A program made the translations under genes and the position numbers. DNA of 64,000 nt from Microthyrium microscopicum. Its lineage: Eukaryota. This document shows, piece after piece, positions 16,638 to 62,869 of this stretch. Position 1 is the first letter of the stretch, and each line of letters opens with the position of its first letter. The stretch lies in the NCBI GenBank assembly GCA_010405405.1, contig MU004246.1, positions 310,001 to 374,000 on the forward strand, in the 5' to 3' direction. The notes under the pieces are model-generated. The model ran no database searches. It worked only from the letters and a program-made list of their open reading frames with translations, and had not been told where the DNA came from.

Positions 16638-16921
16638 TGTCGCGGTTTGTTGGTGTAGGTTGTTGGTGGTTCGTTGTGGTGTTTTTGAGGTATGAGGATG
16701 GAGGTGAAGCGGTGGTTGTTATGTATGTATTGCTGGCGCCTAGGTCCGTGTGGCAATATCAGTGGCTGGGTAGGAGATCAGGCGCGGGAATAATGCTGTT
16801 GTTGTTGGTCTTGGTCTTGGTAACTTGTTTTGGTGGTTAAATGAGAGGCGGTTCGAGCTCTAAGGCTTCAATGCTTGATCCAATCATTGAACAGGCATAC
16901 GTCATCATTGAGCTAAGGCAC

Positions 16922-17134
16922 CAAGGGGTCGAGAAAATAAATGGCGCGCTCCCAACGAGTGCAATGGCTCCCATATAAGACGATCTACTATCGAGTGCTT
17001 TATTTGCCATAGAGCGCGTTCAGACTTCGATTATTTATCGAATGCGATGAAAAATATAATACATTTGAATCAACAACGTTCGTGGGAGCCATCGACGCTG
17101 ATGGGAGAACGCCAGTTATTTTGTTCATCGGTTG
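16922..17134 (+). mobile_element. MITE-like element, copy 1 (213 bp)
   Basis: CAAGGGGTCGAGAAAATAAATGGCGCGCTCCCA...TGGGAGAACGCCAGTTATTTTGTTCATCGGTTG; 5-bp TSD GGCAC (16917-16921 / 17135-17139). Confidence 0.85.
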
Positions 17135-18028
17135 GGCACTTGGGGTACGATTAGATAAGATCAGGCCTTGGCACTCTGTTACAACAACTACATCGCGAGA
17201 ATGATTTTCCAAAACCTTCGCACGTTACTTATAAGCCAGCAAGGGAAAACGGTCAGATCTATTTCTCTGGAAGTCTGAGGGGATGCCGTCTGACTCTGAA
17301 ACCTTCATTTAAACACATCAGCAAACGTGTCACCTTGGTACACAGCCTCCATCGCGCCGAAAGCAACCATCAAATACAGAGCTATATCATCTAGCCGAAT
17401 GAAGCCATTTCTTCTGTTTGCAGCGAAGGTGCCTATTTGAATACTCCAGAGGCATGAAGATGGACCATCAAAAGCTTGACATATTTTGCTCATCGTCTTG
17501 GCATGGGGCAAGGCATTCTGTTCGTTTCAGACTCTGGAGCACGACGCGTAATGGCTCATGGCGAAGCAACTTCTCGTGTTCGGTTTCACGAATTCCTGCC
17601 AAGCGGATGTAAAGCTTTTAGAATACAAAGAGACCCCTCTAGTGGAGGCCGCGAGGCCTCCCTCCCTCCACGATTAGCCATTCACATGATCGGAGATATC
17701 TGCGAATCATAGTTCCAAGCCTCCTTCAAACCTATTTGTGAAACAGACATAACCGGCTACCTGGTCTCGCGTGGTTGTTGAGGCTAAACTCGTACTTGGG
17801 ATCTTGGCGGATTGAACTGGTAATGGAAAGGACAGCCGGTGCTTGGTAGGCTGACTTTGGTGATACTGCATATCTCCACTAATCATAAAATATCTAGCGT
17901 ACGAGCTTAGCAGTCGAGCGCAAGACAGGTTGCATGCAATATTTCGCGGATGAAGCCAGGTTCGTACCTTACTTGTCACGGCGCGAATTAGGCGATCATG
18001 GTCGCCGGCTAAGAATTCCGACGCCATT

Positions 18029-18241
18029 CAACGGCATAGCAAAATAAATGGCGTACTCCCATCAACTCTAATAGCGCCTAGAGGCTACGGTCTATTATTG
18101 AGTGCTTTCTTTGCTATAAAGGGCGTTCAGATTAGGAGTATTTATTAGATACGATAGGAATTAAAGCGCCTTCTAATTAGCAGCGCTCATAGTAGCCATC
18201 AGAGTTGATAGGAGTAAGCCATTTATTTTGCTATGCCGTTA
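18029..18241 (+). mobile_element. MITE-like element, copy 2 (213 bp)
   Basis: Perfect 23-bp TIR AACGGCATAGCAAAATAAATGGC extending to ~40 bp with 2 mismatches; 6-bp TSD GCCATT (18023-18028 / 18242-18247). Confidence 0.9.
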
Positions 18242-20121
18242 GCCATTGACAGCGGAAGATATAATGTTCAGTGCTTTTCCCATTGAATTAGGAAATTGGA
18301 ATCAATAAGCGTGCGCTTCACCTTCAGCATCACCATGTGTTCATATTTTTAGCCTATTGATGCATGCTGCGCCGAAAACTGACTAGCTCTCAGCCTTACT
18401 GCACCTTCACCGAGGAAATTCAGTATTGAACAATTTTTCCCTGTTTCCTGGACCCCTCATATGCAATTCTTACCGGGTTGTCTCCTGTCAAAATCGACAG
18501 CAGATGCGACACGTTCTGTATTTGTGCAAGTGTTGCAGCCATGAAGGTGAAATGCTGGAACATAACAAGCAATCCCAGGTAAGCCTCAGCACAACAAGAC
18601 GACCATGTCGAGCCTGCTGGATCATGAGAAAAACTATAAAGCTTTCTTCCAGCGAACATTAATTGCAGTTTCGGACGCCATGCTCAGTGCCCCGAAATGT
18701 TACCCGCTTGTTGCCTTCAGACCTCGTGCGGCACGCTCTACTATCAAGGCATACATGGTTCTCACTATCCATCTCCGGTGATTTGCTTCACGTTTGCACC
18801 AAATATACTGATCTATCAGGCAACAGCCATCAGCCTGATTTGCAGGTCCTAGTGGTTCCATAGGATGCTCAAGATCAGGGCGGCAACACTGCACGGCCGC
18901 GGCCTTCTGGTTTCTATACCGGGACGTAGTCCAATTCAGGAAACTGAATTTTTACACTAAATTATACTCTCATCATGCAATACCTTCAGCCACTGGATCA
19001 GTTGCTCCGTCTGGGAATACCATTTATGGGTTTGGCAGAGACAACGGACGAGGCGCCCACGAAGGCCTACAGTCTAAATTTGGTTGCTGGAGGCAATGGC
19101 TACTGCGGGAATGCGGACCGCGTTGCACGAATCGCAAAGCCATCCAGCGACTGAGGCAATCTCATGAAGCCTAGAATGACTTCACCAAGGCGGTCAATTC
19201 TCCCACGCGTGGAACCACTCGCACTGAATTGTAGCTGTAAGTTGGCTTTCGTTGTCTTTCCAAGTGAACGAAAAAATCCAAGCCTCAGAAATGTGCATGT
19301 AGAGCTCTAGTAGTGGGAGTGAGTGGGTGCTTTTGTTTGAAACCTTTGTACCTTTACACGACCTTCATCAATATCCTTAATCTGCACAACAAACATCTCT
19401 TCCTTTTTCAGCATGCAATGTGCACAAGTCATCCTTCTTTCTTTAAGCCCTTCTTTTTATATTGATTGGATGCTTGCTGATACCGCTATTAAAATTAGGC
19501 CAAGGCTGTCAAGCTGTGTAATAGAATATGGACGCGAAAGGCATAAGGCAAAAGGCATCGTCCACTAAAAGTTCACTTCATTGTCAAGCCACACCTAGTT
19601 CATCTACACGCCCCGCAAAGGATATACCGAACCTTCGACTCTTGGGAGTCTCTTCCTCAATCTCACACCGTTCCTTTTCAAATAAGCGGCCATATCCGAT
19701 GGTTTCTGAATCTCAGGGCGGCCTTTGACTCACACATCGTGATGGAGGCCAAATCCGCCTACGAGGCCCTGTGTAACAAACCGGCGACGGGTTTTGATTT
19801 GATGTTAGAAGATTGCCTCAGGGAAAATGGGCGGTGATGAGGAGGCACTGCTAAATAAGCTATAGCAGTTACATGTAAAGATGTTGTCGTTTTCAGTGCC
19901 TCAGAAACGCCTTGCTCCCATATTCTTTGAGTATATAGAGCAAGACTTTGAGACACGAGTTTCTGGGTTTCAGCAGACTCAGATCGACTTGTATTCTTCT
20001 ACTATCACCAGTTTAACCGAACTCGAGGCACAGTCTTCTCGGCAAAGAATTAAGTAAGTCTATGTGGCATATAAACCTTTCCTTTCGACTCTTGAGCCGT
20101 TAATTTAGAAGCTAACAAAAG

Positions 20122-20574
20122 ATGGCAGCCGTTTCCAATTCTTTCTATTGCTGTCAGTGCCATTCTGGCCCTTGGTCAAGAGAGATATATTGCCACTGTC
20201 TATCCCCTGGTTGTTACCACAAAGAGTGTCCTTACTGCCTCGAAGAGACGATACCCGACCAAGCAAAGTACAGCTCACTTCCGAAGTCATCGCAATCCAC
20301 CAGCATGTCAGACAACTACAACTTTCAGCACAGGTCTATGTCCAGCTTGAACTTGGTATTGAGCCTAGGACCTTCCCTCTTTCCATCTCCTTCGCCGGTG
20401 GATCTGTCAGGTTTGGGGGGATTTCAAGCTAGACCTGAAGGAACGGGCAACCAGATTTGGCATTGTTGCCAATGTGCCACCGACAACGGAAATATTGCAC
20501 ATACTAAATCTTGTCTGAATGCGGCTTGCGGACATCAGGCCGACTCTTGTTGTCACTACGAGGATACCCCATGA
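20122..20574 (+). CDS. Small Cys-rich zinc-ribbon-like protein, two domains (array member 1)
   Basis: FYCCQCHSGPWSREIYCHCLSPGCYHKECPYC and WHCCQCATDNGNIAHTKSCLNAACGHQADSCC. 5' intron 20054-20121 abuts the ATG; another intron starts at 20579 just after the stop. Confidence 0.8.
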   Translation: MAAVSNSFYCCQCHSGPWSREIYCHCLSPGCYHKECPYCLEETIPDQAKYSSLPKSSQSTSMSDNYNFQHRSMSSLNLVLSLGPSLFPSPSPVDLSGLGGFQARPEGTGNQIWHCCQCATDNGNIAHTKSCLNAACGHQADSCCHYEDTP

Positions 20575-43921: not shown

Positions 43922-44102
43922 GAGGGTGGTGGTTGTGGTGATGAAGGTTCTTCTTTTCATGTTTGTATGATGAATATCATTTATTGGGGCCGTTGGCACG
44001 GGACTGCTGACGATGGTGGAAAAGCAATGATGTCAAGCTTTATTTATAGCTTCTTTTGTATGTATCTATTAATTCATGTTGTCGTATTTTTCGTCGTGAT
44101 GT

Positions 44103-45619: not shown

Positions 45620-48412
45620 ATGGCGCACGACGACTTCATGTGGCTAGATATTCCCATATCTACAATGCTCTTAGCATCATGGGGTTCATATTTCTACTGG
45701 ATATCATCTGCCGCCGATCAACAATGGGACAAGCTACCTTCCCGATTACAATATGGCTACACATTCACAATGGTGGCACTATTTGCACTAACTGCGATAC
45801 TTTCCGCCCTCAAGAAATGTATAATCTTCCTTGCCATTTTGTTTGGCCCTCTTCTCCTCGTTGGCTTTGCCGCAACACGATCGTATCAATATTTCATCTT
45901 TCGTCTCTCATCGAAGCTCGTTTTCAGTTGTCGCAATTTTCGTGGGCCCGATATATCGGGGGTGTGGTGTAGACTTTGCCAGAGGTGTCAAGGGTTGGTG
46001 GATCAATCCCCTCTCTTAGGTGGTACTTCCTTGGGAATTACAAAGTCCAACGAACGCCACTCATTCCATACAAAGAAAGAGCTCGAACGGTCTGCAACGG
46101 ATTGCCACATGTGTATCTTGCTTCTAAAGTCTGTCGAAGAGTTCAATGAATCACCGGAAAAGGAGACAACGTCAACCGAAACCGAACTCACACTTCTCAT
46201 ACAAGACAGGAGACCAATAGGCGCTTATCCAGCATCAAAGTTAGAGCTAGAGCTTCTTGGAGCACCCATCAAGAAGTCAAATCGAATATGCGTTGATGGT
46301 AGGAGTTGGAGTGGAAATAGTAAGTCTATTGAGAGCTTTCCTACAAGATACCTACCTCCTACCTACCTGCCAACCATGTGACAAAATAAATGGCGCGCTC
46401 CCATCAAGTATGATATCTCCCATCGTACCTCTTCAAGAAAAGCTACTCTAAATCCCAACGCATTCGATTGGGAATCGAGTATCATGCACATTGAAAAGAA
46501 GATAATACACATTGGCACAAAACGTAGCAGATGGCAGATATCATACTTGATGGGAGCGAGCTACTTATTTTGTCGCCCGGTTGATAGCATAGCAGTGTTC
46601 CAGATGATCTTGCTAATGCTGACAGCAAGCTCTGACCATGGGTGCTTTACCTCCAAACAAACAGATACTCAAGATATATTCAACTGGGCAGGACATCGTA
46701 TTGGCGAATGTTCTCGAAAACATAGGCGTTGCGACAATGCATTCGTTCCTGAAGCACTCCGGAATTACCTACCTTTGAGACTCTTGGACGTTGGAATTGA
46801 AACAGATGCAACCATCAGCTTGAAACTCGGCTCAGAGCTCAACGAAGGAACCTCTAAAGCATACATTGCTCTCAGCCATTGCTGGGGTGAAGCAGTGAAT
46901 CTGACGCTCACTAAATCTAATCTCGGCTCCATGGCAATCATCAATGAGAGCGATCTGACCAAGAACTTTCAGGACGCGATCAAGATCACACGCGCCCTAA
47001 AATTGAGACATCTATGGATAGACTCCTTGTGCATTGTCCAAGACGATAACACCGAATGGGAGTCACAGTCGGCCAATATGGGCTTGGTATATGCCAATGC
47101 TCAGTGTGTAATATCTGCATCAGCATCAAACGACTCGAATGGCGGTTGTTTCATGCCTAAAGAGCTCTTCCGGAATGATTGCACATTGCGAGAAGCTGCG
47201 TGCCGTTCACTGATTGTCAAGGCCCCTGGAAAGCAATCATTCAAGGAGCAGTTAGAACTGTTTCAGGATAAAGCGGAGAACAATACCATCTCTACAAGAG
47301 CCTGGACATTCCAGGAAAGGTATCTGGCTCGCCGTGTTTTGCACTTTTGTGATGGTGTTGTATTTTTCGAATGCAACGAGCTCATTTCTCGAGATGGCCA
47401 ACGCTATTTTGAGAACAAACATGGAGTTCGAGCTGGAGTTCGCCCGGATGGAACACTGCATCCCCCAGAGGAGCTGGAGGCTATCCAAGATGTAGTGGAG
47501 TCGCAAGTACCAGCAACAGCCAAAAAGCGCCGCTTATTTAGAAAGCCTTTCAACTCAGCCAACGAAGCTGAACAGCAAGCTCAGGAAAGGGCACAAATGG
47601 AGCTCAGGAGAAAATTAGCGAGTGCGTCCGCACGAAGTGGTATGCGTGGTGCCTTTGAGCTATTATGGCGATTCAAAGGAGCGCAATTAGCAGAGTATAT
47701 CGAGTTTCACCAAGGTTGGTATGAAATGGTAGAGCCATACTCGACTCGCAATCTTACGAGGGGTTCCGACAAGCTCAAGGCATTGAGTGGAGTAGCCCAT
47801 CTCATTCAGCAAAATACCAAGTTCAAATATGTCGCTGGCTTGTGGCAAGAAATGCTGGCCTGCAACCTTTTGTGGGTTGTTTCTGGCTCTGTTCAAGAAC
47901 GGCCAACACGGAACATTCCCAGCTGGTCCTGGGGATCTGTAGATAGCCAAGTTTCACATCGGCTTCAAGTGGTTGATTCTCACCAAATCTCCGATGAAGG
48001 AGACTCGACACTGCGATCTGAAAGGTTCCAAAGCGCCTGGGAAAAGATTATGCCTCTCATTTCGGGGGAGAAAGTCGACATAATAGAGCAGAACAATGAT
48101 CTTGTCCTCAATGCCACCATCTCATTCAATGCTACTCTTCACGACTCTACATTACATTACGTCAATTTCATACCAGACGTTGTTCTACCTTCCTCGCCTG
48201 GAACACTGTTCCATTTACCTATATTGGCTTTCAAAAATACCAGAGTTCACCCGGTTGGGAGCGATATGCAAGTTCATGGACTTGTTGTACGGGCAAAAGA
48301 AAGTGCTGAACAAGTGTATGCAAGAGTCGGTTACTTTTGGACCACAGACAATGATATAGTGGCACAAATGCTGTCGCCACAAGGTCTGACGGGTTTAATC
48401 ACTCTGGTGTAG
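45620..48412 (+). CDS. HET-domain protein with N-terminal transmembrane segments
   Basis: Exons 45620-46319 and 46626-48412 (intron GTAAGT 46320...GCTGACAG 46625, in phase). HET motifs LPLRLLDV, YIALSHCWG, FQDAIKITRALKLRHLWIDSLCIVQDD, MGLVYANA, TRAWTFQERYLARRVLHF, YSTRNLT..SDKLKALSG, YVAGLW, PSWSWGS. Upstream CQRC and CHMC motifs. Confidence 0.9.
46371..46583 (-). mobile_element. MITE-like element, copy 3 (213 bp), inside the HET gene intron
   Basis: CAACCATGTGACAAAATAAATGGCGCGCTCCCATC...GATGGGAGCGAGCTACTTATTTTGTCGCCCGGTTG; no clear TSD. Confidence 0.85.
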
Positions 48413-48497
48413 AGTAGCTCGAAATATTCGGTAGATACATTAAATATTGCATTCAATGCTCTTCAGAGAATACCTCAAGGACCTACATTACACTTAG

Positions 48498-48713
48498 CAA
48501 CTGATAGACAAAATAACTGGCGTTCTCCCATCAACGTCGATGGCTCCTATAACCGCTATTACTTAGAAGGTGTTATATTTTCCCATCGCAGTTAATAAAA
48601 TGACCGTATCTTAACGCGCTTAACAGCAACTAAAGCACTCGATAGTAGTAGATCGTCTTGTATGGGAGCTATCACACTCGCTGGGAGCGCGCCACTTATT
48701 TGTCGACCCCTTG
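48498..48713 (-). mobile_element. MITE-like element, copy 4 (216 bp)
   Basis: Reverse-orientation relative of copy 1 (ends GTCGACCCCTTG); 6-bp TSD ACTTAG (48492-48497 / 48714-48719). Confidence 0.9.
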
Positions 48714-49102
48714 ACTTAGAAGGCTAGAACGACACTATCGACAGCAGCTATCGCTTAAAGTTTTCAATTTTGGTGACTATTCCCAGCGTGTTGGTAATGA
48801 GCCTCTACGTATCTTTCCACTCTATATAGCCCAGCAGCTATATCAACCTACTTTCGAGATTTGTTTGCGATCAAGTCGAGATTGATAATCGCAGGAGCGA
48901 GCCTCAAAACGCGGCCCGATCCGCCTGTGGTACCACGCTAGACCATACTAGGATCAGCCTTTTTACAACACCACGTACATCGCGACTCCTGATAAGCAGA
49001 TCATCCAGCTTCAGCTGTCATCCACAATACTTCCATTCTGCCACACGTCGCTTCTCACACCAGAGCACCCAGTTTATCTACTAGTGTCACGCAAAGTCCG
49101 TT

Positions 49103-49729
49103 ATGGCGGCCTCCACCCAAACCTCCTATCCTGATACCCACACGGCCTTTTTCTACGGCACACTCATGGCTCGCAGTGTCCTTCATCGGGTGATATTCGG
49201 TCCTTCCGCCTCTGATCCCAATAGCACCACCCTTCATAATCTCTCCTTTGCGCCCGCCATACTGCCAAATTACCAGCGACACAAAGTCATCGGTGCAGAT
49301 TATCCCGCAATCCTCGAAGCTCAGCAAAGCACAGTCCGCGGCACGCTTGTACGGGGCTTGACACAAGGAGATATCTGGCGTCTTGATCTTTTTGAAGGCG
49401 ACGAGTATGAGCGACGCAAAGTGTCTGTACGCGAACTCAAGCCTTCGCACAAGACTGATCTACCATCGCTGGATGGGGATGAAGTACTCGGAGAGGTAGA
49501 GGCGGAAACATATGTGTGGATCATGGGGGAAAATACCCTGGAATCAAGGGAATGGGACTTTGATGAGTTTGTAAGAGAGAAGATGTGGCGCTGGGTCGAT
49601 GGTGAGCCCCATGCTGAGGAAATGTTTGGCGAGCTGGATGAGGCTGTTAAACAGGCGGATCCTACTCGAGGCCGAGGCATGAATGGAGATATCACAAAAG
49701 CTTTACAAGATGCGAAGAGTGCCTCATGA
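49103..49729 (+). CDS. AIG2-like / gamma-glutamylcyclotransferase-like protein
   Basis: AFFYGTLM, YQRHKVIGADYPAI, VRGTLVRGLT..DIWRLDLFEGDEYERRKV, AETYVW, EWDFDEFVREKM. Confidence 0.9.
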   Translation: MAASTQTSYPDTHTAFFYGTLMARSVLHRVIFGPSASDPNSTTLHNLSFAPAILPNYQRHKVIGADYPAILEAQQSTVRGTLVRGLTQGDIWRLDLFEGDEYERRKVSVRELKPSHKTDLPSLDGDEVLGEVEAETYVWIMGENTLESREWDFDEFVREKMWRWVDGEPHAEEMFGELDEAVKQADPTRGRGMNGDITKALQDAKSAS

Positions 49730-49775
49730 TGGATTTGCTGTACTCTTTGTCTTCTTCCCCAGCTTGCCCAGCTAT

Positions 49776-52082
49776 CTAGGTACCTACCAGGTACCCATCC
49801 TCTTTTATCAACTCCTCCAACCACCCGGGCACACCAGGAACTTTCTCCCATCCAGCCCTCCACTGCTCGTTCCATCCATCCACGCAACTCGGCAGCGCAA
49901 ACACCGCCGTCACCAACCAATGCACTCCTGCGTCTAGGTCAAGATGTATTACCGGCAATTGCGTCCGCTGCTCCACTAAGTTCGAGTTGGCATCTGCTAG
50001 GAGAGCTTCAAATTTCCTCTCGGGCGAAAGCAAATCCACAATCCCAACGACTCCCGAGCGTGAAGCAATACCACCGCCTCCTGTCTGCTTATTCTGGAAC
50101 CATCCCTCCGTTTCTGTTCCACCTATTGTTCCGTACCCGTCTACTACCCCCTTTCCATCCTTGCCATCCGTGTCTTCACCGGCCATCCACGAAAGCGGTC
50201 GTCCATCTACAGTATTGCAGCAATGCACCGCCCACGCACCCTCTGCGCTCTTGAGCCAGCGACCGGTTGTGATTTTATGCGCCCGTATATGCCAATTCGG
50301 CGTCTCTACTGCGGGAGGTATGAGGTATGTCTTCACGGTGACATCCTTCCATGGCTTCATGCTGGAAACTAGCACTGGCTCGGAATCCCGTGTCTCAATA
50401 TCCGAGTCTCCATCAAGCGCTCTCCGCATTTTCCATAGCTCGCCGTCTTCGCTATCACACAGCGCAAGCGAAGATTCCGGTACAAGTTGTTCGAGAGTAT
50501 ACGTGCCCGTGCTCACTGAATATGCGAACGCTGAGGAATACGCAAATTTGCCATATTTGGCGTGGCTCGCTTTGATAGGATAGTGGCATGCTTGTCCACT
50601 GCTCAGAAGGAAGGTATGGCCACCGCTATTGACCATGATATGGCGTGGATGCGGTAATGCTTTGATCACCCGAGTATTTGCATATGGATGCGGCTCTTCC
50701 TCAGCAGCCCAGAAGGGATGGGACGCGGGTACGGCAAGGTTGGCGAAAGACAGCATGCACCAGTATGGACTTTGCGGGGAGTTGTAGTTCTCCGCAAGAT
50801 ACATGTTCGGATAGCTATATCCAATGTTGAGCATACCATTCGGCTGAAAGATTTCCGTCTGTTTGCTCCACCACCTCAAATTACGCAGCCAGATGCCCTT
50901 GACGACGCCCCAGGTGAGCGGCGCGGGTAAGTCGACGTTTGCGTATGCGAGGGCAGCCCAGAACCCGATCATGGCCCAACGATACGTGAGCGAGCGACCG
51001 AAAGTGATGGCGCGGCCGTCAGGCGCAAAATAGTGCACAAAGTCTTGCGCATAGAGGCGACCACGCTCCTTGAACTCTTCCGAGTAGTGTTTATCGGTGT
51101 CCTTTTGGAGCTCGGCGTAGAGCAGCTGCAGGTATTGGATGGCGAAGGAGCCAGAGTAGTAGTCCATCTGGCGGTAGTGAGCGGGCCCATCGTTGGACCA
51201 TCCGTCGCCGCGGTAGAATGTCATGAGCTGTTTCATATCGAGGTCGATTTGCTTCTGGTTGAATCTAGCACCACATTTCGCCAGTCCGAGATTTGCAAAG
51301 ACGCGGAACCACAGCCTTGTATGTCAACATCAGCACTACATTCTTTTTCCCATGATGAGGCAACCAGTGGACAGAATAACTGGCGTGCCCCAATCAACTC
51401 CAATGGCTCCTACCGACGCTTCTAAATAGCAAATACTATAATTCCCATCACAGTCGATCGATAGTGGTGGAATAAACGTATTCCTTGGGAAATAAAGCAT
51501 TCGTTATCAAAGCGTCGCAGATAGGAGCCATAGAAGTCGATGGGTGCGCGCCAGTTATTTTGTCCTTCCGTTGATGAGGTTATATACGCACCAATTGGTA
51601 TTCGGCATATTCTTCCCATTCATACTATCAAAGTAATTTGCAATATTTTCCCTCTGCCTCTCCGTCAACGGCTCCCAAAAATGCTTTCCCGCGACTGCCA
51701 ACGTGAACCCAATCGGACACGCCTCCACCATTCGCTGGTCCGTATCTTCCATATATCCCCAGAACTCTGGTCCTTCCGGATCTGTGCCTGCAATCAGGCC
51801 TTTGACCCAGAGCTCCGTCTTGCCATACTCATCGCCGCCAGCCAACAGCGGCGCAAGTCCCCACAACGGCCTCGCATATCCTTCTCCCTGTGCCGCTGTC
51901 TCGTCAAATCGTGTACCCGTACTTCCAGTCTTGATCAATGAATGTTCCGGACTAAAGCCTTGAGACAATGCATCGAGCAGCGAAGAAACTGCATCCACTA
52001 CATCCTGTCTAGTCTTCAACGGATTCTTCGAGAACGGCTGAAGTGGAAAAGAGCGGTTTGCGTCCGAGACTTTGACCGACAT
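49776..52082 (-). CDS. DUF2264-family protein (putative carbohydrate-active enzyme)
   Basis: Exons 52082-51592 and 51315-49776. [14 protein letters not shown]...EFWG, DQRMVE, spliced [61 protein letters not shown]. Confidence 0.88.
51361..51573 (-). mobile_element. MITE-like element, copy 5 (213 bp), inside the DUF2264 intron
   Basis: CAACCAGTGGACAGAATAACTGGCG...CGCCAGTTATTTTGTCCTTCCGTTG; 6-bp TSD ATGAGG (51355-51360 / 51574-51579). Confidence 0.9.
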
Positions 52083-52546
52083 ATTCCTGGATTTTTGAAG
52101 GTTTTCCAGGGAAAGGTGATGTTGGCTTGGCTTTTCTGGTGCAGTAATTGGACAGTGTCAGGCGATGAGGGCCAGCTTATAATAATGTTTGGGGTTAGAC
52201 CGGTAAGATCTTCCGATATTAATGAAATTCCATATTAACACTTACCCACTGACCCGTATAGACAGCATACATCGCAGGACGTCTGAGATTGCACCAGTAT
52301 TTTAAGAATTTGCCGTCTTGGAAGGGTACGCAACCTCACTTTGGTTCGTGTAACTACCTTACCTACCTACCTAGTATCTTGCAGACCCGGTGCTCTGGTT
52401 GTTTTTACCAAGTTTTGCCTTTGTAAAACTCTGCATCGATGTCAAGATAGCAGGACGCAGCTGCAATAGCTCGCAACTGAATTAGTCAATTGACCTTGGA
52501 CCGTATGTAACCAGGACTGGACAACAATCTTGAACATCGATTCATC

Positions 52547-54442
52547 ATGGCGACAACCATGGCCGATGGCCGACGGCCTGGAGCTGGCGCTCGCTTCTTA
52601 TACAAAGTCGTCAAGAATGATGCCATGAAAGAAGACCCCCCAGAAATCTACGGATGGCGCGTATTTGTTCTAGCGGGCTCAGCGTGTTTCGGAGGTATGC
52701 TTTTCGGGATGGATATAGGAACGATAGGTGGTGTTCTCACACTACCCGCATTCATGGCGTAAGTATCCAGCGTCACTACTTACTGTCCCTGTTGATGGAC
52801 TCACTGATATTGTCTAGAAAATACGGTCTCAATGGTCTCAACAAAGTCCAGCTAGCAGACTTAACCGCCAATATCACATCGGTTCTCCAAGCAGGATGCT
52901 TCATAGGCTGCTTCATCGCATCATGGGTTGCCGACAAATGGGGTCGTCGGACTGCGCTTGTTATGAATGGACTCATCACGACAATAGGTTGCATTTTTCA
53001 GGCGGCGGGAAATGGTAATCTTGCAGTGATGTATATTGGCCGATTCGTCGCTGGCGTTGGAGTCGGCGGCGCATCAACAGTAACGCCTTTATTTGTGTCC
53101 GAGAATGCTCCTCGTGCTATAAGAGGAGGTCTGACTGGTCTATATCAGCTTTTCGTGAGTTGAGAGCTTCGCTGTCGCTGTGGTTATTTGGCTAACGCGA
53201 TTGATAGATTGCGACCGGTGTCATGTTGGCATTCGTAAGTATTTCCAGCCTATTGGGCTGTTCGTTTGCTGACTACCTGCCTAGTGGATCAACTACGGAA
53301 GCTTACTGAACTTATCCGGCGATTCCACATACAGTGAGTGCCACCATGTCCTCCCCCAAACCATCGCCATCCTAACAACATCCAGTCGTCCCCCTAGCTC
53401 TCCAAGCCCTCCCAGCAGTTCTTCTCGTAGTCAGCATGCTTCTAACCAACGAATCCCCCCGCTTCCTAGCCAAAGCCGGCAAATGGCCCGCCGCAACCTC
53501 CGCCCTCTGTCGCGTACGCAATCTCAAACCAGACCATCCCTACATCCAATCCGAAATCAACGACATGGCAACGCAACTCAAGCACGAGCAAGAACTCACC
53601 AGCGGCTCCGGCACAAAAGACCTCCTCAAAGAAATGTGGCAAATCCCCGGAAACCGCAAACGCACCAGTTTGAGTATCCTCCTCATGATCTGCCAGCAAA
53701 TGACAGGCACCAACGCAATAAACTACTACGCGCCCCAAATCTTCAAAAACCTCGGCCTCAAGGGCGCAAAAGTATCGCTCTTCGCAACAGGAATCTACGG
53801 TGTTGTCAAAATGGTTACGTGCGCTACATTTCTGCTCTTTGTAGCGGATTCTCTTGGCCGACGCAAGTCATTGTTGTGGACGAGTATTGCGCAAGCACTC
53901 GCCATGTTCTACATTGGCTTATACGTCCGCATCGATCCGCCGGTGGAAGGCAAGGCTGTACCTCCAGCGGGATATTTTGCGCTCGTGTGTATATTCCTCT
54001 TTGCGGGATTCTTTCAGTTTGGCTGGGGGCCGGTGCCGTGGATTTATGTTAGTGAGATTCCGGCGGCGAGGTTGAGGGGGTTGAATGTGGCGATTGCGAG
54101 TGCGACGCAGTGGTTGTTTAATTTTGTGGTTGCGAGGGCTACGCCGAATATGTTGGCTACTGTGGGTGCGAATGGGTACGGGTAAGTTTTTATTTCAGCA
54201 TGCGAAAAAGGGGAAAGGGATGTGCATAGACTGACATTGACAGGGCATTCCTCATATACGGATCATTTTGCTTCAGTTTCTTTTTCGTGGCTTGGTTTTT
54301 TGTGCCGGAGACGAAGGGATTGTCGTTGGAGCAGATGGATGAGTTGTTTGGTGTTGCGGAGCGGGTGGTGGAACCACGGGCATCGACCGAGTCTCAGGTA
54401 GTATCAAATCCGGATACCAAAGGTGATCTAAAGAAGTTGTAA
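52547..54442 (+). CDS. MFS sugar porter family transporter (quinate permease-like)
   Basis: Five introns (52759-52817, 53155-53207, 53235-53284, 53334-53385, 54182-54243). Motifs [80 protein letters not shown]. Confidence 0.93.
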
Positions 54443-54750
54443 GATATAGCTGTCTGCAGGATTTGTTAGGTTGTACCGTATATCTCATAGCAGGAAGTTT
54501 GGCGTTGTGTATGATGTGTCTGGAGTATGTAATATATTGCTTCCTTCCATAGCTGTACAATACCACCAGGCAGTCAGATATGTACTTCCAACAAAAGGAA
54601 TGTGTCGTTTCGAGGCGATGCAAGGTTTTGTATCAAGTCTAATGTTCCAGGATCAAACCGTTCACAGATAAAAGTCCAGTTATGTGCAGGTATCATCATT
54701 GCTATTCGTGTACTACTAGGTACTCATACATATATAATCGTCACATACCC

Positions 54751-56511
54751 TCAAGCCTTGATGCCATTGCCACTCAGCACAGCCTGATGGCTACCCTTAG
54801 TCGGTCCACCATTGTTACCGACACTCGTGAGATCCGCTTCATTGGCAGTTCTCTTGCTGGAGTCCTTGGCCATACCATTGTGTGTGCCGTTAAATGACAA
54901 ACCAGAGATACCATCGTATCCCTTAACGCCAGTGGCCTTCTCCATTCGACTGGCCAAATCTTCGCTGACCTCCCGGAAGATGGACATCATGCGCTTGAGA
55001 ATATCTTCCTTATTGTGCATGATGTTGGCCATGTGACCAGAGGCGTTCTCGACCCATCGCTCACGAGCATCTTCAGTGAAAACCTTCTCCCAGAGCGCTC
55101 GGGGAGCGTTGAAGTCTTCCTTGCGGATCTCGGAAAGGAATGTAACGGCTTTGCCGACGAAGTGGCCGTGAGTCTTGTTTAGGTCGACAGATCGTGGTTG
55201 GAATTTGATTGGATCCACGGAAGATAGATAGTTTGGTCGTTCACCTTGGCTGTAGAAAGCCATTGGTCCATCACGTTGGAAGTTGGCCATTCTATATGGC
55301 ACACGAGGTTGGTTGACAGGTAATTGCTGATAGTTAGCTCCAATACGATGACGGTGGGTGTCTGCGTAAGAGAAGAGACGAGATTGCAGAACGGGATCGG
55401 CAGAAGGCTCAATGCCAGGAACCAAATGCGATGGACTGAAAGCAATTTGCTCAATCTCGGCAAAGTAATTCTTGACGTTCTCGTTGAGGAAGAACTCTCC
55501 GACCTTGCGGAGTGGGAATTGACCTTGTGGCCAGACGTGTGTGAGATCGAAGACGTTAATGCCTTGCTTCTCCCATACTTCTTCGGCTTGCTCGGGACTC
55601 ATGGTTTGGACTGAAAGATCCCAGCCGGGATATTCGCCCTTCTCGATTGCGTAGAAGAGATCCTTTTGGGAATAGTCTGGGCCTTTGGTTGTGGACTCCT
55701 CTTGAGTCAAGAACTTGGTTCCTTGCTTTGACTTCATGTGAATTTGTGCGTAGACCCACTTTCCTTCTTTGTTAATGAGTTTCATGGTGTGGCCAGAATA
55801 GCCATGCATGAATCGATAACCATCTGGAATACCACGATCACCCATGAGGATCAAAACTTGATGAATGGACTCGGGGTTCTGAGCGAAATAGTCCCAGAAA
55901 AAGGTTGAATCGTCGGCGTGAGTCAAATTGGTATTTGGGACTCGCTTTTGAGTGTGGATGAAGTGAGGGAACTTGGCTGGATCTCTAAGGAAGAAGACCG
56001 GAGTGTTGTTTGCCACATGGTCCCAATTGCCTTCTTCAGTTCGGAACTTGACTGAAAAGCCACGAGGGTCTCGGGCACAGTCGTGTGATCCCTTTTCACC
56101 TCCGACAGTAGAGAAGCGAACAGTGATAGGACATTCCTTGCCCTCTTTGAACATGTCTGCGATAGAAAGATCCTCAAGAGTGTTTGTAGTTCGGTAGAAG
56201 CCATGGGCTCCGCTGCCCTTAGCGTGGACTACACGCTCTGGAATTCTCTCACGATCGAAATGAGAAAGAAGGTCGATCAAATGAAAGTCTTGAAGCAGCA
56301 ACGGACCATTGTCACCGGCACGCTGGCTTTCGTATGGGTGTGGGTATGGGGCACCATTGCTGGTGGTGTAAGTGGATTCTGTTGACGTATGGTTCTTGTC
56401 ATCAGTGTAGCTGCGAACAGCATCACCATTGTTCTGGTTTTCAATAGAAGGAGACATGGCGGATTGAGCAACGGATTGGGTGAATTGAGAGATTGATTGA
56501 AGAGTATTCAT
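54751..56511 (-). CDS. Monofunctional heme catalase (small-subunit type)
   Basis: FDRERIPERVVHAKGSG (distal His), RFSTVGG, RDPRGF, RLFSYADTHRHR (proximal Tyr). Intronless; ATG 56511 or 56457. Confidence 0.95.
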   Translation of the reverse strand: MNTLQSISQFTQSVAQSAMSPSIENQNNGDAVRSYTDDKNHTSTESTYTTSNGAPYPHPYESQRAGDNGPLLLQDFHLIDLLSHFDRERIPERVVHAKGSGAHGFYRTTNTLEDLSIADMFKEGKECPITVRFSTVGGEKGSHDCARDPRGFSVKFRTEEGNWDHVANNTPVFFLRDPAKFPHFIHTQKRVPNTNLTHADDSTFFWDYFAQNPESIHQVLILMGDRGIPDGYRFMHGYSGHTMKLINKEGKWVYAQIHMKSKQGTKFLTQEESTTKGPDYSQKDLFYAIEKGEYPGWDLSVQTMSPEQAEEVWEKQGINVFDLTHVWPQGQFPLRKVGEFFLNENVKNYFAEIEQIAFSPSHLVPGIEPSADPVLQSRLFSYADTHRHRIGANYQQLPVNQPRVPYRMANFQRDGPMAFYSQGERPNYLSSVDPIKFQPRSVDLNKTHGHFVGKAVTFLSEIRKEDFNAPRALWEKVFTEDARERWVENASGHMANIMHNKEDILKRMMSIFREVSEDLASRMEKATGVKGYDGISGLSFNGTHNGMAKDSSKRTANEADLTSVGNNGGPTKGSHQAVLSGNGIKA

Positions 56512-57084
56512 TCGGAAGACCAAACTGTCAGGAATGAGAAGTGTAGATAAATGTAGAGAAGTGGAGGGAGGCAAATGCAAGAGGATTTATTCCGCGAAAC
56601 AATCCCCTGGAGTGACGTCTACATGTCCGAACTCCCCACCTTGCCATCCACACGCATCTGAATTACACGGAAAGATCGAGCTTGTAACAATGCCATGCCC
56701 TTACTACTCGCGCGACGCGAAGATATGCATGACGTCTATGAAATACTTTTCAAACCCCGAGCCTTTTTCTATCCAGTTAGAGGTCGTTAATTGCTAAGCT
56801 AGATAGCTACCCCTGTTCATATGCAAGTGGTATTGTAAATGACACCATTATCATTGGATAGTTCTGTGACAAATTGCTTATAAGCTTAACAATTGCGGCA
56901 GCAGAGCCTTGCATCATGTCAGGGATCTTAGATGCGGATACTGCCGGGAATAGCTCAGTCAACATTTCTCAGCCTTGTCTCAGCCTTGTCATGATTACTG
57001 TTTTCAACTAATAGCCATCACTTGGGATCATAAGAAATAAATGTTAGGTGTTCCGGTAAATAATCAACATGGAACTGTACGCTG

Positions 57085-57182
57085 TCGCTGTACAGAATAA
57101 GCGGTATGCTCCCATCCACTACGATGTCTACCATCCACCACGCTCTATTATCGAGTGCTTTGTTTGCCAGCGACCACGTTTA
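57085..57182 (+). mobile_element. MITE-like element, degenerate left-half fragment (copy 6)
   Basis: ACAGAATAAGCGGTATGCTCCCATC...CTCTATTATCGAGTGCTTTGTTTGCC matches the left arm and internal motif of copies 1, 2 and 7. Confidence 0.6.
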
Positions 57183-57314
57183 ACCTTGGCTACCTCAGTA
57201 CTTATCAAATTCCATGTGCTAGGCGAGTGCAATAATTCTGACCATTTGTTCTAATGTTGACATTCAGACATGTATAATATTAACATGAACCATAACAGTG
57301 AAGCATATACATCC

Positions 57315-57527
57315 CGCTGGCATAACAAAATAAATGGCGTACTCCCATCAATTCTAATAGCGCCTAAACGCTACGCTCTATTATTAAGTGCTTTATTTAT
57401 TATAATAGTTGCTTAGATTAGTAGCCTTTATCAGATACGATGGGAATTAAAGCAACTTTTAGTTAGCAAAGCTAGTAGTAGCCATCAGCGTTGATGGGAA
57501 TACGCCATTTATTCTGCCATGCCTTTG
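57315..57527 (+). mobile_element. MITE-like element, copy 7 (213 bp)
   Basis: GGCATAACAAAATAAATGGCGTACTCCCATCAA...TTGATGGGAATACGCCATTTATTCTGCCATGCC; closest to copy 2; TSD degenerate. Confidence 0.88.
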
Positions 57528-57818
57528 CCACCCGCCAGTCTGTCATGGGTTGCTTGGTAAAGAACCCTTAATACCCAGCTGGAACCAGATCAATTCCCAG
57601 AATCCCCCTACTTAGACTAATACTTGGCTCTCCAGCCTCTTAGCTTGAGCCTTAGGACATCTCTAAGTGGTGCAGAATCTGAAAGTCGACCACAGATTGG
57701 CAATGAAAGTATTTCCCCACCACTACGGATGCGACGTTCTTAAAAAGCCTACGCACCGCAATGTCGAGAGATTTTACCTCACACTACAGCGCCAAATCAG
57801 ATCACAGCCAATTCCAAG

Positions 57819-58305
57819 ATGGCGCCTACTCCGACCTCAGATGAGGAATTTCAGGTCCTCGATGCTGCCTTAACCAGACTGAACACCTACTCAAAACTTT
57901 TATATCCAGAAAGCGATATCGCCAAACTCACAAACGACATCCATAGCATAAGGTTCATGGTGACCGTATGCATGGTTGCCATCGTATGCCTAGCTTTAAT
58001 ACTTCTCGGTTTTGTATGTAGCATATTTGAGGTAAATATAAGGCTCTCCTTAAGGCTTACATGATGATATCGTCAACTAATCGAGTCGAAATATAGCCTG
58101 GTGATGATCATCAGTCTCGAATGAGACCTTATTATGCAGACAAGCTTGCAAAGCACTCTTCACAGGTAGTAGGCATCGGACGTATTCGAACTTTCGTCTC
58201 ACTAAACCCTTTCAGATGAACGATCAGCCAAAAGAGCTGGAGAACAACGGTCAGCCGCCGACTTATTCGAATGCTGTATGCCATACGGCTCCAAAACAAG
58301 ATTGA
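57819..58305 (+). CDS. Small single-pass membrane protein with PPxY motif (trio member 1)
   Basis: Exons 57819-58031, 58097-58165, 58216-58305. MAPTPTSDEEFQVLDAALTRLNTYSKLL, one TM, C-terminal QPPTYSNAV. Confidence 0.75.
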
Positions 58306-58363
58306 AGTCAAATCACTGGCTAGTGGCCAGCCAGACAAAAGGGCAGATATCCTTGTGGGATAT

Positions 58364-58575
58364 CAACTAAAGGACAAAATGACCGGCGTGCCCCCATCGA
58401 CTTTAAGGCTCCCATCTGCCACGCTTTGTTATCGAGTGCTTTATCACGCAAGGACTACGTTTATTCCACCACTATCAAATAATTGTGATGGGAATTATAG
58501 TATTTGCTGTTTAGAAGCGTTGGTAAGAGCCATTGGAGTTGATTAGGTCATGCCAGTTAGTTTGTCCACCTGTTG
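58364..58575 (+). mobile_element. MITE-like element, copy 8 (212 bp)
   Basis: CAACTAAAGGACAAAATGACCGGCG...TGCCAGTTAGTTTGTCCACCTGTTG; reverse-orientation relative of copy 5; flanks GATAT/GACGT. Confidence 0.85.
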
Positions 58576-58935
58576 GACGTGAGAAGCGAATTTCAGCAAT
58601 TAGCTAGGACCGATACATACATCTCCTACAATCTTCTAAAGCCTTGGATCCAGTTTTCTACCTAAATATTCTCTTAGCTTAACATCTGTATCATCGCCAA
58701 GCGGTACAGAATCTAGAGTGGACCACAAGTTGGTCTTGAATGCACCCAAGGCACTAAATATAAAAGCATGTCCTCCACCGATTATATCTCATGCTGAATT
58801 CGAACAAAGTACTTGAACTGTCCCAATCAAAAATCCAGTCGCCCAAAAAGCACTCAATCATTTCATGTACCACGCTCAAATAGAGACGTCAACACTCCCA
58901 CATACCACACGAACAGAGCCAATACAATCGTTAAG

Positions 58936-59512
58936 ATGGCACCAACTCCAACCTCAGATTCAGACTTCCAGGCTCTCGACGCCGCCCTCGAGAAACTAAA
59001 CACCTACTCAAAGCTCCTACAACCAAACAATGCCTCCGTACCCCCCAATATGGCCGAGTTCGCCAAAAGTCTATTTGTCATAAAAGTCATCGCCATTATA
59101 TGTCTTGTTGGCATTATCATCATGTACTTCACGCAGTGTTGTGTGAGTGGTAGCCTAACTTCGGTACGGATCCAGTTCTTCTTTTATAATTGCTTTGGTC
59201 TTATATTGCTTTCGTATACTGATGTCTCAAACTATTAGGCCAAGAAAACGGCGAAGGAAGCGGCAAATGCAGCGAGGCAAGCGAAGGATGCATCGGAACG
59301 TGTAGAGAGGCAGATTAAAGCGCATCTGGCGAGTTTGAACAAGGCTGCGAATGTGTCTGACACAACAACAACAACGACAACTGCGCAGGTTAGTTTCTTT
59401 TGATGAGATGTAGTACTCTGGCTAATTTTCCATTTGCAAGACAAGCAGTGAGCCCAAAGATGTCAACAATGAGCCGCCAACGTACTCGAATGTTGTGCAG
59501 ACTGCCGATTAG
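58936..59512 (+). CDS. Small single-pass membrane protein with coiled coil and PPxY motif (trio member 2)
   Basis: Exons 58936-59163, 59239-59388, 59441-59512. MAPTPTSDSDFQALDAALEKLNTYSKLL, one TM, Ala/Lys/Glu helix, EPPTYSNVV. Confidence 0.78.
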
Positions 59513-59516
59513 CTAC

Positions 59517-59729
59517 CAACAGCTCCGCAAAAGGAATCGCACGCTCCCATCAGCCTCGTTGGCTCCCAGGTGCTACGCTATTTCATCGAATGCCTTATCT
59601 GCCATCCTTGCCGTCCAAAATCAAATGATTTATGGATTACAATGTGAGATATAGCACCTTTTCCTTAACAGCGTTGGTAGCAGCCATCAGAGTTGATGGG
59701 AGATCGCCATTTAATTTGCCATGCTGTTG
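59517..59729 (+). mobile_element. MITE-like element, copy 9 (213 bp)
   Basis: CAACAGCTCCGCAAAAGGAATCGCACGCTCCCATC...GATGGGAGATCGCCATTTAATTTGCCATGCTGTTG; flanks GCTAC/GCTGC; starts 4 nt after a stop codon. Confidence 0.85.
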
Positions 59730-60416
59730 GCTGCTATCACGATGAATGAGCTGAAGTTGGCAGGGGACCTAACAGCTGGGTTTTGATGCCAAGGCTGCTG
59801 GTAGAGATGTCGTGGAATGTATGGTACTCTAGCGTAATTAGGGAGCATTAGAAAGATCAAGATAGATCAGCTCTAGTGGTATTGCTATGGACTTGCAGAT
59901 TGTTAGTTTTATACACGCCACTGAACTCAAATTACTTCAACTCTTCCTCTGAAACTCTGACCGATATAAGCATCACAGTACCGGTAGTGGATAAAAAGCA
60001 GCATAGGTAATGAAGAATGCTATTTGCAGTCCGGTCAATTTACCTCTACCGTATGCCTCATGATCAACATGGCGACCTGGCTCGCCTACAAGGCTACAAC
60101 CATGCTTTGGTTGATCAAGAGTTTTAAATCTTGGCAAGTCCTTCGATGTGGGATCAATACCATGAACTAAGCTGCCAATATGTGGGCGACTATTGTTATT
60201 TGGCTCGAATGCATCACTATACCACAATACACAGCTTCGAGCAATGGATACTCCAGTTTTTAACAGCACGTGCGTTTTGACACTTTGCATTTGAAGCCAG
60301 AAAGCTCTGAATTTCGTTGACCATCAATCTGTGTAAATTGCAAGCTCCATACTCGTTCATCATCCCTCGACGCATGCCACAATCGCATTGTAAAGACCTA
60401 ATAACCAGGAACAACC

Positions 60417-60844
60417 ATGGCGCCTATCGCCATCGATCCAGCAACCACGACAATCGTGAAAGACGCCGTACAGAAAGTCGTGCACAGGACAGTCATGGTC
60501 ATTGATGCAGATTCACCCGTCAAACTACCGAAAGATATATATTGGGGGCTCGCCTTCATTTTCGTGCTACTTTTCGTTCTAGTCGTGATGGTAGGCTCAG
60601 GAAAAGAGAGCCCCAAAGAAGTAAGCTGAACTTGGCTATGTGTCCTAAATGCTTTTACTGACGACATGGCCAGAGAAAAGCAAGAATCGAATCAGACAAG
60701 ATCAAGTTGGAGGATGTTCGAGCAAATACTGCAGCACTCGAGGCCAACACGGCAGCACGAAAGGCTTATAAAGACACACCCAACATGCCTTCCAGTCTTC
60801 CTCCATGCTATTCCGCTGCACCATTTGGTACCTGCGTAGGTTAG
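60417..60844 (+). CDS. Small single-pass membrane protein with PPxY motif (trio member 3, divergent)
   Basis: Exons 60417-60620 and 60674-60844. MAP start, TM (IYWGLAFIFVLLFVLVVMV), intron after the TM, helical segment, LPPCYSAA. Confidence 0.65.
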
Positions 60845-61624
60845 GGACTGTGGATGGGAAACTTCATATTGGATTTTGGAGTAAACATATGTCAATTTTC
60901 AAATTAGGGAAGCTATACGCTGTCTTTGAGGTCACTCACATCGTCAAGTCCTGATGAATTGTATCTGGAAATAAAACAGCATAGCTTGTGGTAGGCTGGT
61001 TGGTATAAGGCTACTGGTGGTGGATATAAGGCTGGAAAAAGAAAATCTTACGCAATCAACCACTGTCCTATGTGGCAGCTATCGTAATAAAAGGATACTT
61101 CACCAAACGACTCACTTATTCTGTTCCTGGGTGGGTATGTAGTATCTCTTCTATAAGTCTTGCCCACCAATCATCCTGAAACTATGTTTCAATGTATTTG
61201 GTCGAGTTTTTGACCACTGATCAGTTACACCTTTGCGTTTTTGGCTTTACCAGACTTGGTGAGGAGCAGCCCGATAATCTAGGTTGGTCATATAGCCGAT
61301 CGGAAATGAGTTACCAGGTTCTTGGACAATAATGCGCTTTACTATATGCTTTATACATAAGACGAAGAGCCCTGCACCCTCACCCAGAATTGGGGCAATC
61401 TGCCCATCTGGTTCGCAGCCTGGGTACTGTAAATCGGTATTAGCAGTCGCCGAAATTATCCATCGGCTCTGAAAAAACTACCGCCGCCAATATAACAGTT
61501 CTCAGCCGACTTGTGATAAGGCGAGGCTATCCGTCTCAATTGTGGATGCTCAACAACGTGGCTTACTTTCTTTTATATCCCCACTCAAAACTCGACGAAC
61601 TTGCATACCTTTCGGAAATTCATC

Positions 61625-62413
61625 ATGAAGGTAGTCGGAGCAATTGTCCTTGCGACTGCCGTCAGCGCATTGCCACAAGGTTCATGGAATGTCGATACTT
61701 GTCCCGACAATATTCTAATTGTCGCCCGTGGGTCCATTGAACAAGGAAATACTGTAAGTACTGGGTTTGGGGATCGTCAACGGCTTGACAAGATAAGTGG
61801 CGTGCTCCCATCAACATCGTTGGCTGCCATTGTCGCTGATGGGAGTTTGTCAGTTGTTCGGTTCATTGGCTGACAATCGATTGCCCCCGGAGATAAAGTC
61901 ATTCTAACTGTCTCGTAGGGTACAGTCATCGGAGGTCCACTCTGCGCCGGTCTAAAGAAGAAATACGGTGCCAAATTTGGCTGCCAGGGAGTTGGCACAG
62001 CAGATGGATATCCAGCTGCAGTAGGCGACAACAGCAAGCCCAAAGGAACATGCGATGAATGTATCAGCGGAACAATTAAGATGTTCGGCAAAATGCACAC
62101 CAAATGTCCTAAGGCCAATTTGATGTTCATGGGATATAGCCAAGGCGGCGCGATCATGAGCTCAGCGATTCCTCAACTCGCTCCTGATGTCAAGTCAAAG
62201 GTTATTGGTGGAGTACTATTTGGATCGACTAGACAAACTATCTCTGGACTTACGAAAGACCAATTTGCTTCGTACTGCGGGAGCGAGGACAGCATTTGCA
62301 ATCGTGTGGCGAAAAGTGGATCGACGGGATCACATTTGGCCTACTCTAAGAATGGGGATGTTGAAAAAGCGGTTGCGTTTCTCAGTTCGAAGATTGATGC
62401 GGCTGGTAAATGA
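61625..62413 (+). CDS. Secreted cutinase (CE5)
   Basis: Exons 61625-61753 and 61919-62413. Signal peptide, C-x6-ARGSIEQGN, catalytic GYSQG, VLFG, C..EDSIC, HLAY. Confidence 0.92.
61778..61872. mobile_element. Internally deleted MITE-like element (copy 10, ~95 bp) inside the cutinase intron
   Basis: Left arm CAACGGCTTGACAAGATAAGTGGCGTGCTCCCATCAACATCGTTGGC fused directly to right arm GCCATTGTCGCTGATGGGAG...TGGCTG. Confidence 0.7.
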
Positions 62414-62469
62414 TCTCAGTCCGGTATAGACTTCGCCTAAAATATGAAACCCGAATGAACTTCTTAACC

Positions 62470-62653
62470 GAATCCCACCATAAATGGCTACTGTTGCATG
62501 CTTTTGTTAGATGATGCTATATTTTCCCATCCTTCCAAAGAACAACCATAATCTGATCGTCTTCAATGGCAATTTAAACCACCGATATCAGAGCATAGCA
62601 GATGGGCGACATCAAAGACGCTAGGAGCACGCCATTCATCCTGCCATCCGTTG
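62470..62653 (-). mobile_element. Degenerate MITE-like element (copy 11), tandem with copy 12
   Basis: AATGGCTAC...TATATTTTCCCATC internal motif and terminal GGAGCACGCCATTCATCCTGCCATCCGTTG; left end eroded. Confidence 0.55.
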
Positions 62654-62658
62654 AGGTC

Positions 62659-62869
62659 CAACCGATAGACAACATAATGGCGTACGGCCATCAGCTTCAA
62701 TGGCTCCCACGAACGCTACTGAACAAAAGATGCTAGTTTTCTATTGCGTTAGATAAACTGTGCCAATATCAACGCCCTTCATGGGAAATAACGTACTTGA
62801 TAGCAAAGCGTGTCATATGGGAGCCATCGAACTCGATGGGAGCACGCCAGTTATTTTGTCTACCGGTTG
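62659..62869 (-). mobile_element. MITE-like element, copy 12 (211 bp)
   Basis: CAACCGATAGACAACATAATGGCG...GATGGGAGCACGCCAGTTATTTTGTCTACCGGTTG; flanks AGGTC/AGGTT. Confidence 0.88.

Follow-up and report, generated by a model that had tools for sequence, protein, structure and literature searches.

Tc1/mariner elements duplicate a TA dinucleotide upon insertion, PIF/Harbinger elements 3 bp (TWA), and Mutator elements about 9 bp. In the available sections of the papers cited here, hAT elements are described as usually generating 8-bp target-site duplications (TSDs), with duplications of 5, 6, and 7 bp being made by hAT5, hAT6, and the rust fungal hAT7, respectively; hAT5 and hAT6 sit within an animal lineage of the tree (PMC12730594). 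The EnSpm/Mirage/Chapaev/Transib clade has common CA..TG ends and TSDs of 2 to 5 bp (PMC12730594), and the IS3EU elements found in fungi have 6-bp TSDs and TAYGG..CCRTA ends (PMC12730594, PMC10045372). In Epichloe festucae, 13 families of degenerate MITEs (miniature inverted-repeat transposable elements), termed EFT, have mean pairwise identities of 62 to 80% and were placed in Tc1/mariner, Mutator, PIF/Harbinger, or hAT or were left as unknown (CACTA-like) (PMC3227409). Here we describe a dispersed family of ~213-bp elements with CAAC..GTTG ends in a 64,000-nt stretch of the genome of Microthyrium microscopicum (contig MU004246.1, positions 310,001 to 374,000), hereafter termed the window, whose own coordinates are used throughout. 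This family is very probably an old, subfamily-rich MITE that has been moved in trans by a transposase making staggered cuts of 5 to 6 bp.

Repeats of ~213 bp in both orientations were recovered independently by a repeat search of the window, with the similarity between copies ending at the element termini. Nine full-length copies were aligned, and an nhmmer profile built from them was searched against the window. Matches were obtained at all 12 loci that had been proposed in an earlier reading of the letters alone (the sequence-only reading), and no further family locus was detected in the 64 kb, the sole extra match having an E value of 4.9. When as many as three mismatches were allowed, the window contained 16 occurrences of the arm motif AAAATAANTGGCGNNCTCCCATC, as compared with none in 100 dinucleotide-preserving shuffles. 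The full copies ranged in length from 211 to 216 bp, six of the nine being exactly 213 bp, and the other loci held a left half, a copy with its interior deleted, and a copy with an eroded left arm (Table 1). Copies were present in both orientations and in unrelated surroundings. The open reading frames (ORFs) overlapping them contained no Pfam domain, indicating that the elements have no coding capacity, and a Pfam-type scan of the 97 window ORFs of at least 100 codons detected no transposase domain, as had been stated in the earlier reading. No match to an Rfam family and no tRNA genes were detected in the whole window. A metagenome scan with an arm pattern of 21 specified bases produced one match, in a G+C-rich contig of which only 26 nt fit the profile, and this match was taken as chance.

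The consensus arm consists, in order, of the tip CAAC, about six variable positions, an A-rich box (ACAAAATAA), TGGCG-NN-CTCCCATC, a variable 7-mer, and ATGGCTCCCAT. This A-rich box begins at position 11, 3 nt past the first seven bases. The opposite end is the mirror image of this consensus and, hence, a TGGC..CTCCCAT motif is present twice in each arm. In three inverted pairs returned by the repeat search, the arms paired across 51 to 59 nt with 75 to 88% complementarity; the terminal inverted repeats (TIRs) are, at this complementarity, nearer to 50 to 60 nt than to the ~45 bp given in the sequence-only reading. Single-stranded DNA folds of three copies had energies of -48 to -51 kcal/mol and z scores of -8.5 to -10.8, which were not equalled by any shuffle. 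The element interior could be aligned among the copies almost without gaps, indicating a defined element orientation, and left arms were closer to the left arms of other copies than to their own right arm.

Duplications were scored in the 10 two-ended copies with the termini fixed at CAAC and GTTG. Exact TSDs were present in four of these, one of 5 bp (GGCAC) and three of 6 bp (GCCATT, ACTTAG, and ATGAGG), and a further two copies (59517 and 62659) had one mismatch in five. As a control, both boundaries were slid 7 to 40 nt away, resulting in 1,156 combinations, of which 1,144 had no exact TSD and the remaining 12 had one, as compared with the four observed at the fixed termini. As the shifted control was almost empty, the duplications are real and lengths of both 5 and 6 bp occur; all four exact duplications and the mixed length listed in the sequence-only reading were, thus, upheld. 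Among the near-exact duplications in the same list, GCTAC/GCTGC and AGGTC/AGGTT stood with a single mismatch, and GATAT/GACGT, flanking copy 58364 with two mismatches in five, was counted as weak. There were no flank matches of 7 bp among the copies, and 4-bp TSDs were likewise not found. The possibility that the 6-bp TSDs are 5-bp duplications next to an additional A at the terminus was considered, but this would need a chance A before the left copy in two cases, and the length of 6 bp was retained. The family, therefore, has TIRs, flanking TSDs, a small and uniform non-coding size, and many dispersed copies with unrelated flanks, all features of a MITE. The inverted ends and TSDs, together with a window devoid of transposase domains, agree with the non-autonomous nature that had been proposed for it.

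Evidence independent of the window was obtained from sequencing runs, four of them probably from the source genome and two (X5 and X6), with small shares, from another organism, whose contigs were compared at 80% likeness with positions 44001 to 64000 of the window. In the source runs, summed contig depth, which is no copy number, rose 3- to 15-fold and did so only in bins holding elements; the rise was 1.3-fold at the deleted copy, and there was none at the eroded copy. For run X1, 427 contig pieces matched where 8 tile the stretch. Relative to the window copies, 42 of the pieces had a likeness of 95 to 99% and 153 a likeness of 90 to 95%, but no age was drawn from these values because the pieces are short. 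At 48498, 59729, and 62869, which are termini as set here, 10 to 14 contigs per listed boundary continued into unlike sequence, with a flank-consensus agreement of only 0.39 to 0.62. Other listed loose ends (46380, 48701, and 57319) fell a few bases inside element ends. This divergence of the source-run contigs at the termini indicates that many further copies exist with the same ends and different flanks. One contig from another locus joined position 48530 to position 48650 of copy 48498, which suggests that other loci also hold copies reduced to their arms by internal deletion, as is the 95-bp copy at 61778. In X5 and X6, a single 293-bp match of ~79% identity was located in a 52-kb contig, and no orthologous locus was covered. 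Alongside their own genome, which was present at high depth, these two runs also contained contigs of low depth (2 to 4×) that were identical to the window, reflecting either a trace of DNA of the source fungus in the sample or carry-over.

Pairwise identities of the full copies were 60 to 85%. Three sister pairs (16922/48498, 18029/57315, and 51361/58364) were 76 to 87% alike over 62-nt arms even though their members lie tens of kilobases apart, and both these pairs and the likeness of same-side arms would be predicted if an oriented element had split into subfamilies. Conserved and variable columns were defined from the other seven copies, with each pair left out in turn; within sister pairs, 16% of the conserved columns differed, against 22% of the variable ones (P = 0.055), indicating that decay after insertion was close to neutral. 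Over all pairs, there were 1,375 transitions, 1,378 transversions, and 56 gap positions. Repeat-induced point mutation (RIP) was rejected as the main source of divergence on the basis of this ratio of ~1:1. Copies of 213 bp are probably too short to trigger RIP, a property which fits the observed ratio and would help to explain the persistence of the family. Composite mobilisation of segments of 0.9 to 1.1 kb between neighbouring copies was also considered and rejected, as the outer flanks differ (GGCAC versus GCCATT) and neighbours belong to different subfamilies.

The best-supported course for the spread of this family begins with a transposase whose gene lies at another genomic site, for which the CAAC tip, the A-rich box, and the TGGC..CTCCCAT repeats would be putative binding sites. 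Such an enzyme would pair both ends, excise the element, and join it to target DNA whose strands have been cut 5 or 6 nt apart, and repair of this stagger would leave the duplications. On this account the family is old and divided into subfamilies, with roughly neutral decay following insertion, and the surviving copies are found in promoters, 3′ flanks, and pre-existing introns. Several observations weigh against this account. Copies 46371, 57315, and 61778 had no recognisable TSD, and the TSD of 58364 was poor. Among DDE transposases, it is uncommon for the TSDs of a single family to vary between 5 and 6 bp. The identical 213-bp length of six of the nine full copies, despite a divergence of 15 to 40%, implies fewer indels than neutral decay would be expected to leave; a large part of the divergence may, therefore, have accumulated among master copies that were still active. 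Finally, neither an autonomous partner nor an excision footprint nor an empty site was encountered in the window or in X5 and X6, which lack the orthologous region.

Superfamilies were compared with the family using published descriptions of ends and TSDs, and for every named superfamily at least one of the defining features tested failed or was mixed. The exact duplications of 5 and 6 bp have neither the lengths characteristic of Tc1/mariner, PIF/Harbinger, and Mutator nor the 8 bp of canonical hAT, in keeping with the sequence-only reading, which had set aside TA, 3-bp, 8-bp, and 9-bp TSDs. The range of enzymes considered in that reading was, however, too narrow, as short-TSD hAT elements, fungal IS3EU elements, and the EnSpm/Transib clade are described in the available part of PMC12730594. 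IS3EU/GingerRoot elements resemble the family in their 6-bp TSDs and TIRs of >30 bp and also occur in fungi, a truffle among them (PMC12730594, PMC10045372), but have TA..TA rather than CA..TG termini, and some TSDs here are 5 bp. TSDs are reported to measure 4 bp in Ginger1, 4 to 5 bp in Ginger2, 6 bp in Polinton, and 3 to 6 bp in long terminal repeat elements (PMC10045372); Ginger ends are TGTNR (PMC2836005), and neither these ends nor 4-bp TSDs are seen in this CA..TG family. Dada elements lack TIRs and insert into small-RNA genes (tRNA and snRNA) (PMC3706591), in contrast to a family with long TIRs in a window without tRNA genes or Rfam families. Kyakuja elements have CA..TG ends, 7-bp TSDs, and no TIRs (PMC12730594). 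The EFT families are similar in being small and non-coding, with TIRs of tens of nucleotides, many deleted copies, and parents that were mostly not found, but in the available table rows their TSDs are AT, TA, or TWY, with none of 5 or 6 bp, and their termini are CTCC and CCC as opposed to CAAC (PMC3227409). The nearest structural fits are short-TSD hAT and the CA..TG clade. The ends and the footprint together fit none of the groups compared. Mixed 5- and 6-bp TSDs in combination with CA..TG ends are an uncommon signature, and a partner from a new or unexpected superfamily in Pezizomycotina would extend the known repertoire of fungal transposases.

An unusual or undescribed transposase group was inferred in the sequence-only reading, and it is possible that the partner belongs to a transposase lineage that is undescribed or unreported from filamentous ascomycetes. 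The enzyme may, for example, be related to Transib or be another DDE enzyme acting on CA..TG ends, its target stagger alternating between 5 and 6 nt. Consistent with such a lineage, CAAC..GTTG ends, arms of 50 to 60 nt, and 5/6-bp TSDs do not coincide with the tested features of any superfamily compared, and a literature text search with four arm 13-mers matched only unrelated papers. This is, however, an argument from absence, and the ends and TSD are not a reliable basis for classification when used alone; superfamilies are known in which the length of the TSD has changed, as in hAT (5 to 8 bp; PMC12730594) and IS481EU (PMC10045372). Were this lineage to exist, the 5/6-bp TSD with CAAC..GTTG ends would be its first visible trace.

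The termini of hAT elements follow the rule 5′-YARNG, their TIRs are usually short, and subterminal repeated motifs are typical of their ends. A partner from a short-TSD lineage of hAT, similar to hAT5, hAT6, or hAT7, is doubtful but has several points of agreement with the family. The ends are CA..TG, the arms carry subterminal repeats, and about half of the termini in 18 arms (CAACG or CAAGG) fit the YARNG rule. Elements of the hAT superfamily are ubiquitous in fungi (PMC5751038), and families with TSDs of 5, 6, or 7 bp and YA..TR-type ends have been described, hAT7 representing a TSD shift within fungal hAT (PMC12730594). Conversely, hAT5 and hAT6 belong to an animal lineage, hAT7 makes 7 bp, and a mixture of 5 and 6 bp inside one family is not reported in the available part of PMC12730594. 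The remaining termini are CAACC, CAACT, or CAACA, such that position 5 is not a conserved G, and the arms, at 50 to 60 nt, are far longer than typical hAT TIRs.

Transib elements have a CAC tip and a layout like that of a recombination signal sequence, with a heptamer, a 12- or 23-nt spacer, and a nonamer. A Transib-like enzyme, or another from the EnSpm/Mirage/Chapaev/Transib clade, is an unlikely partner, and the likeness to Transib drawn in the sequence-only reading proved weak. Three of the six informative TSDs are 5 bp (one exact and two near-exact), the length found in Transib, an A-rich box lies near the tip, and both the 5′-CA..TG-3′ termini and short TSDs are common to the clade (PMC12730594). 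However, only one of the four exact TSDs is 5 bp, and the other three, at 6 bp, are beyond the 2- to 5-bp range. The tip is CAAC and not CAC, and the box begins at position 11 instead of after a 12- or 23-nt spacer, with no heptamer/spacer/nonamer arrangement. In the available part of a survey of fungal genomes, Transib is given as absent (PMC5751038). Beyond the papers cited here, the literature search did not return any account of ascomycete MITEs belonging to Transib, hAT5, or hAT6.

A different class of explanation is that the repeats are a host-selected structured element, such as a hairpin RNA, a small-RNA source, or a regulatory module, that was spread by duplication rather than by transposition. 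The very stable hairpins, the strikingly conserved length, and the location of at least six copies in regions that are likely transcribed (introns and 3′ flanks) are consistent with this explanation, but it is very unlikely given that exact TSDs occur far beyond chance and that copies are present in both orientations and in unrelated contexts. Recent divergence is near uniform over conserved and variable columns, truncated, eroded, and internally deleted copies are present, and there is no Rfam match. Covariation between the arms, as would be produced by selection on a hairpin, was also looked for; partner arms had a mean identity of 0.67 versus 0.64 for other arm pairs, and nothing was detected beyond the subfamily structure.

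The gene content of the window is that of a filamentous ascomycete and includes genes for a HET domain protein, a Tra1 homologue, a catalase, a cutinase, a GH12 protein, a sugar transporter, and a DUF2264 protein. Introns are short, with GTAAGT or GTGCGT and CTAAC-like signals. Three of the copies are situated in introns, the models for which were inferred from canonical splice signals and joined reading frames and not from RNA (Table 1). In all three, 18 to 51 nt separate the 5′ splice site from the start of the element and 42 to 46 nt separate its end from the 3′ splice site, and the reading frames join across the intron; the DUF2264 profile match crosses its junction without an evident gap. 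As the splice sites are outside the element, these copies represent insertions into pre-existing introns. An intron-generating element (introner or introner-like element), which by definition provides the splice signals or has the same extent as the intron, is hardly tenable for this family, since, although 3 of the 12 loci are in introns whose 165 to 306 nt are long for a fungus, removal of the element leaves ordinary introns of 57 to 93 nt, the remaining nine loci lie between genes, and the element does not keep one orientation with respect to the gene.

Table 1. Copies of the MITE family and element-bearing introns in the window
Feature	Position	Strand	Length	Flanks and remarks
Full copy	16922..17134	+	213 bp	Exact TSD GGCAC at 16917-16921 and 17135-17139
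Full copy	18029..18241	+	213 bp	Exact TSD GCCATT at 18023-18028 and 18242-18247; final base A, not G
Full copy	46371..46583	-	213 bp	No TSD; within inferred 306-nt intron of HET domain gene
Full copy	48498..48713	-	216 bp	Exact TSD ACTTAG at 48492-48497 and 48714-48719
Full copy	51361..51573	-	213 bp	Exact TSD ATGAGG at 51355-51360 and 51574-51579; in DUF2264 intron
Partial copy	57087..57217	+		Profile positions 6-129; initial bases eroded, right half gone
Full copy	57315..57527	+	213 bp	Left terminus CGCT, not CAAC; no TSD
Full copy	58364..58575	+	212 bp	Flanks GATAT/GACGT, weak; between two small paralogous ORFs
Full copy	59517..59729	+	213 bp	Near-exact 5-bp TSD GCTAC/GCTGC
Deleted copy	61778..61872		95 bp	Both arms present, interior lost; in cutinase intron; no TSD
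Eroded copy	62482..62655	-		Right terminus CCGTTG intact; ~27 nt of start of other arm unrecognisable
Full copy	62659..62869	-	211 bp	Near-exact 5-bp TSD AGGTC/AGGTT
HET gene intron	GTAAGT 46320 to AG 46624-46625		306 nt	93 nt without element
DUF2264 intron	GTGCGT 51591-51586 to AG 51317-51316	-	276 nt	57 nt without element and one TSD
Cutinase intron	GTAAGT 61754-61759 to AG 61917-61918		165 nt	~65-70 nt without element

Among the intergenic loci, copy 16922 lies ~200 bp upstream of the 5′ end of a minus-strand gene of the Pmp3 family, copy 48498 lies 86 nt past the stop codon of the HET gene, and the eroded copy at 62482 starts ~57 to 70 nt past that of the cutinase gene. For annotation, this represents an unmasked family that occupies promoters and 3′ flanks as well as introns in ordinary genes, and by which three introns have been lengthened three- to fivefold and spurious ORFs are created. 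One such case is the first ATG of the long HET frame, at 46484, which is inside a MITE copy and at which a naive ORF caller would begin the protein; the spliced model instead uses an upstream exon ending at 46319.

Two copies adjoin each other in the region from 62650 to 62665, where the left TSD (AGGTC) of copy 62659 directly follows the terminal TTG of the eroded neighbour ending at 62655. This arrangement may be due to chance or to a preference for insertion beside an existing copy. None of the 12 loci is located between 18242 and 46370. This interval contains the Tra1 homologue (32318-43921, plus strand), an uninterrupted ORF of 3,867 codons with Tra1 ring and central, FAT, PI3/PI4-kinase-like, and FATC regions.

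Two small tandem paralogous ORFs (57819-58064 and 58933-59238, plus strand) both begin with MAPTPTSD and have no Pfam match, and they are 74% identical over 93 nt (57816-57908 versus 58933-59025). The MITE copies bracketing these ORFs differ in subfamily and are, therefore, separate insertions outside the duplicated unit. An inverted repeat pair unrelated to the MITE family was detected just downstream of the GH12-like ORFs; its 33-nt halves (9253-9285 and 9487-9519) are 76% complementary, lie 201 nt apart, and are rich in TTATCA/GATAAG words.

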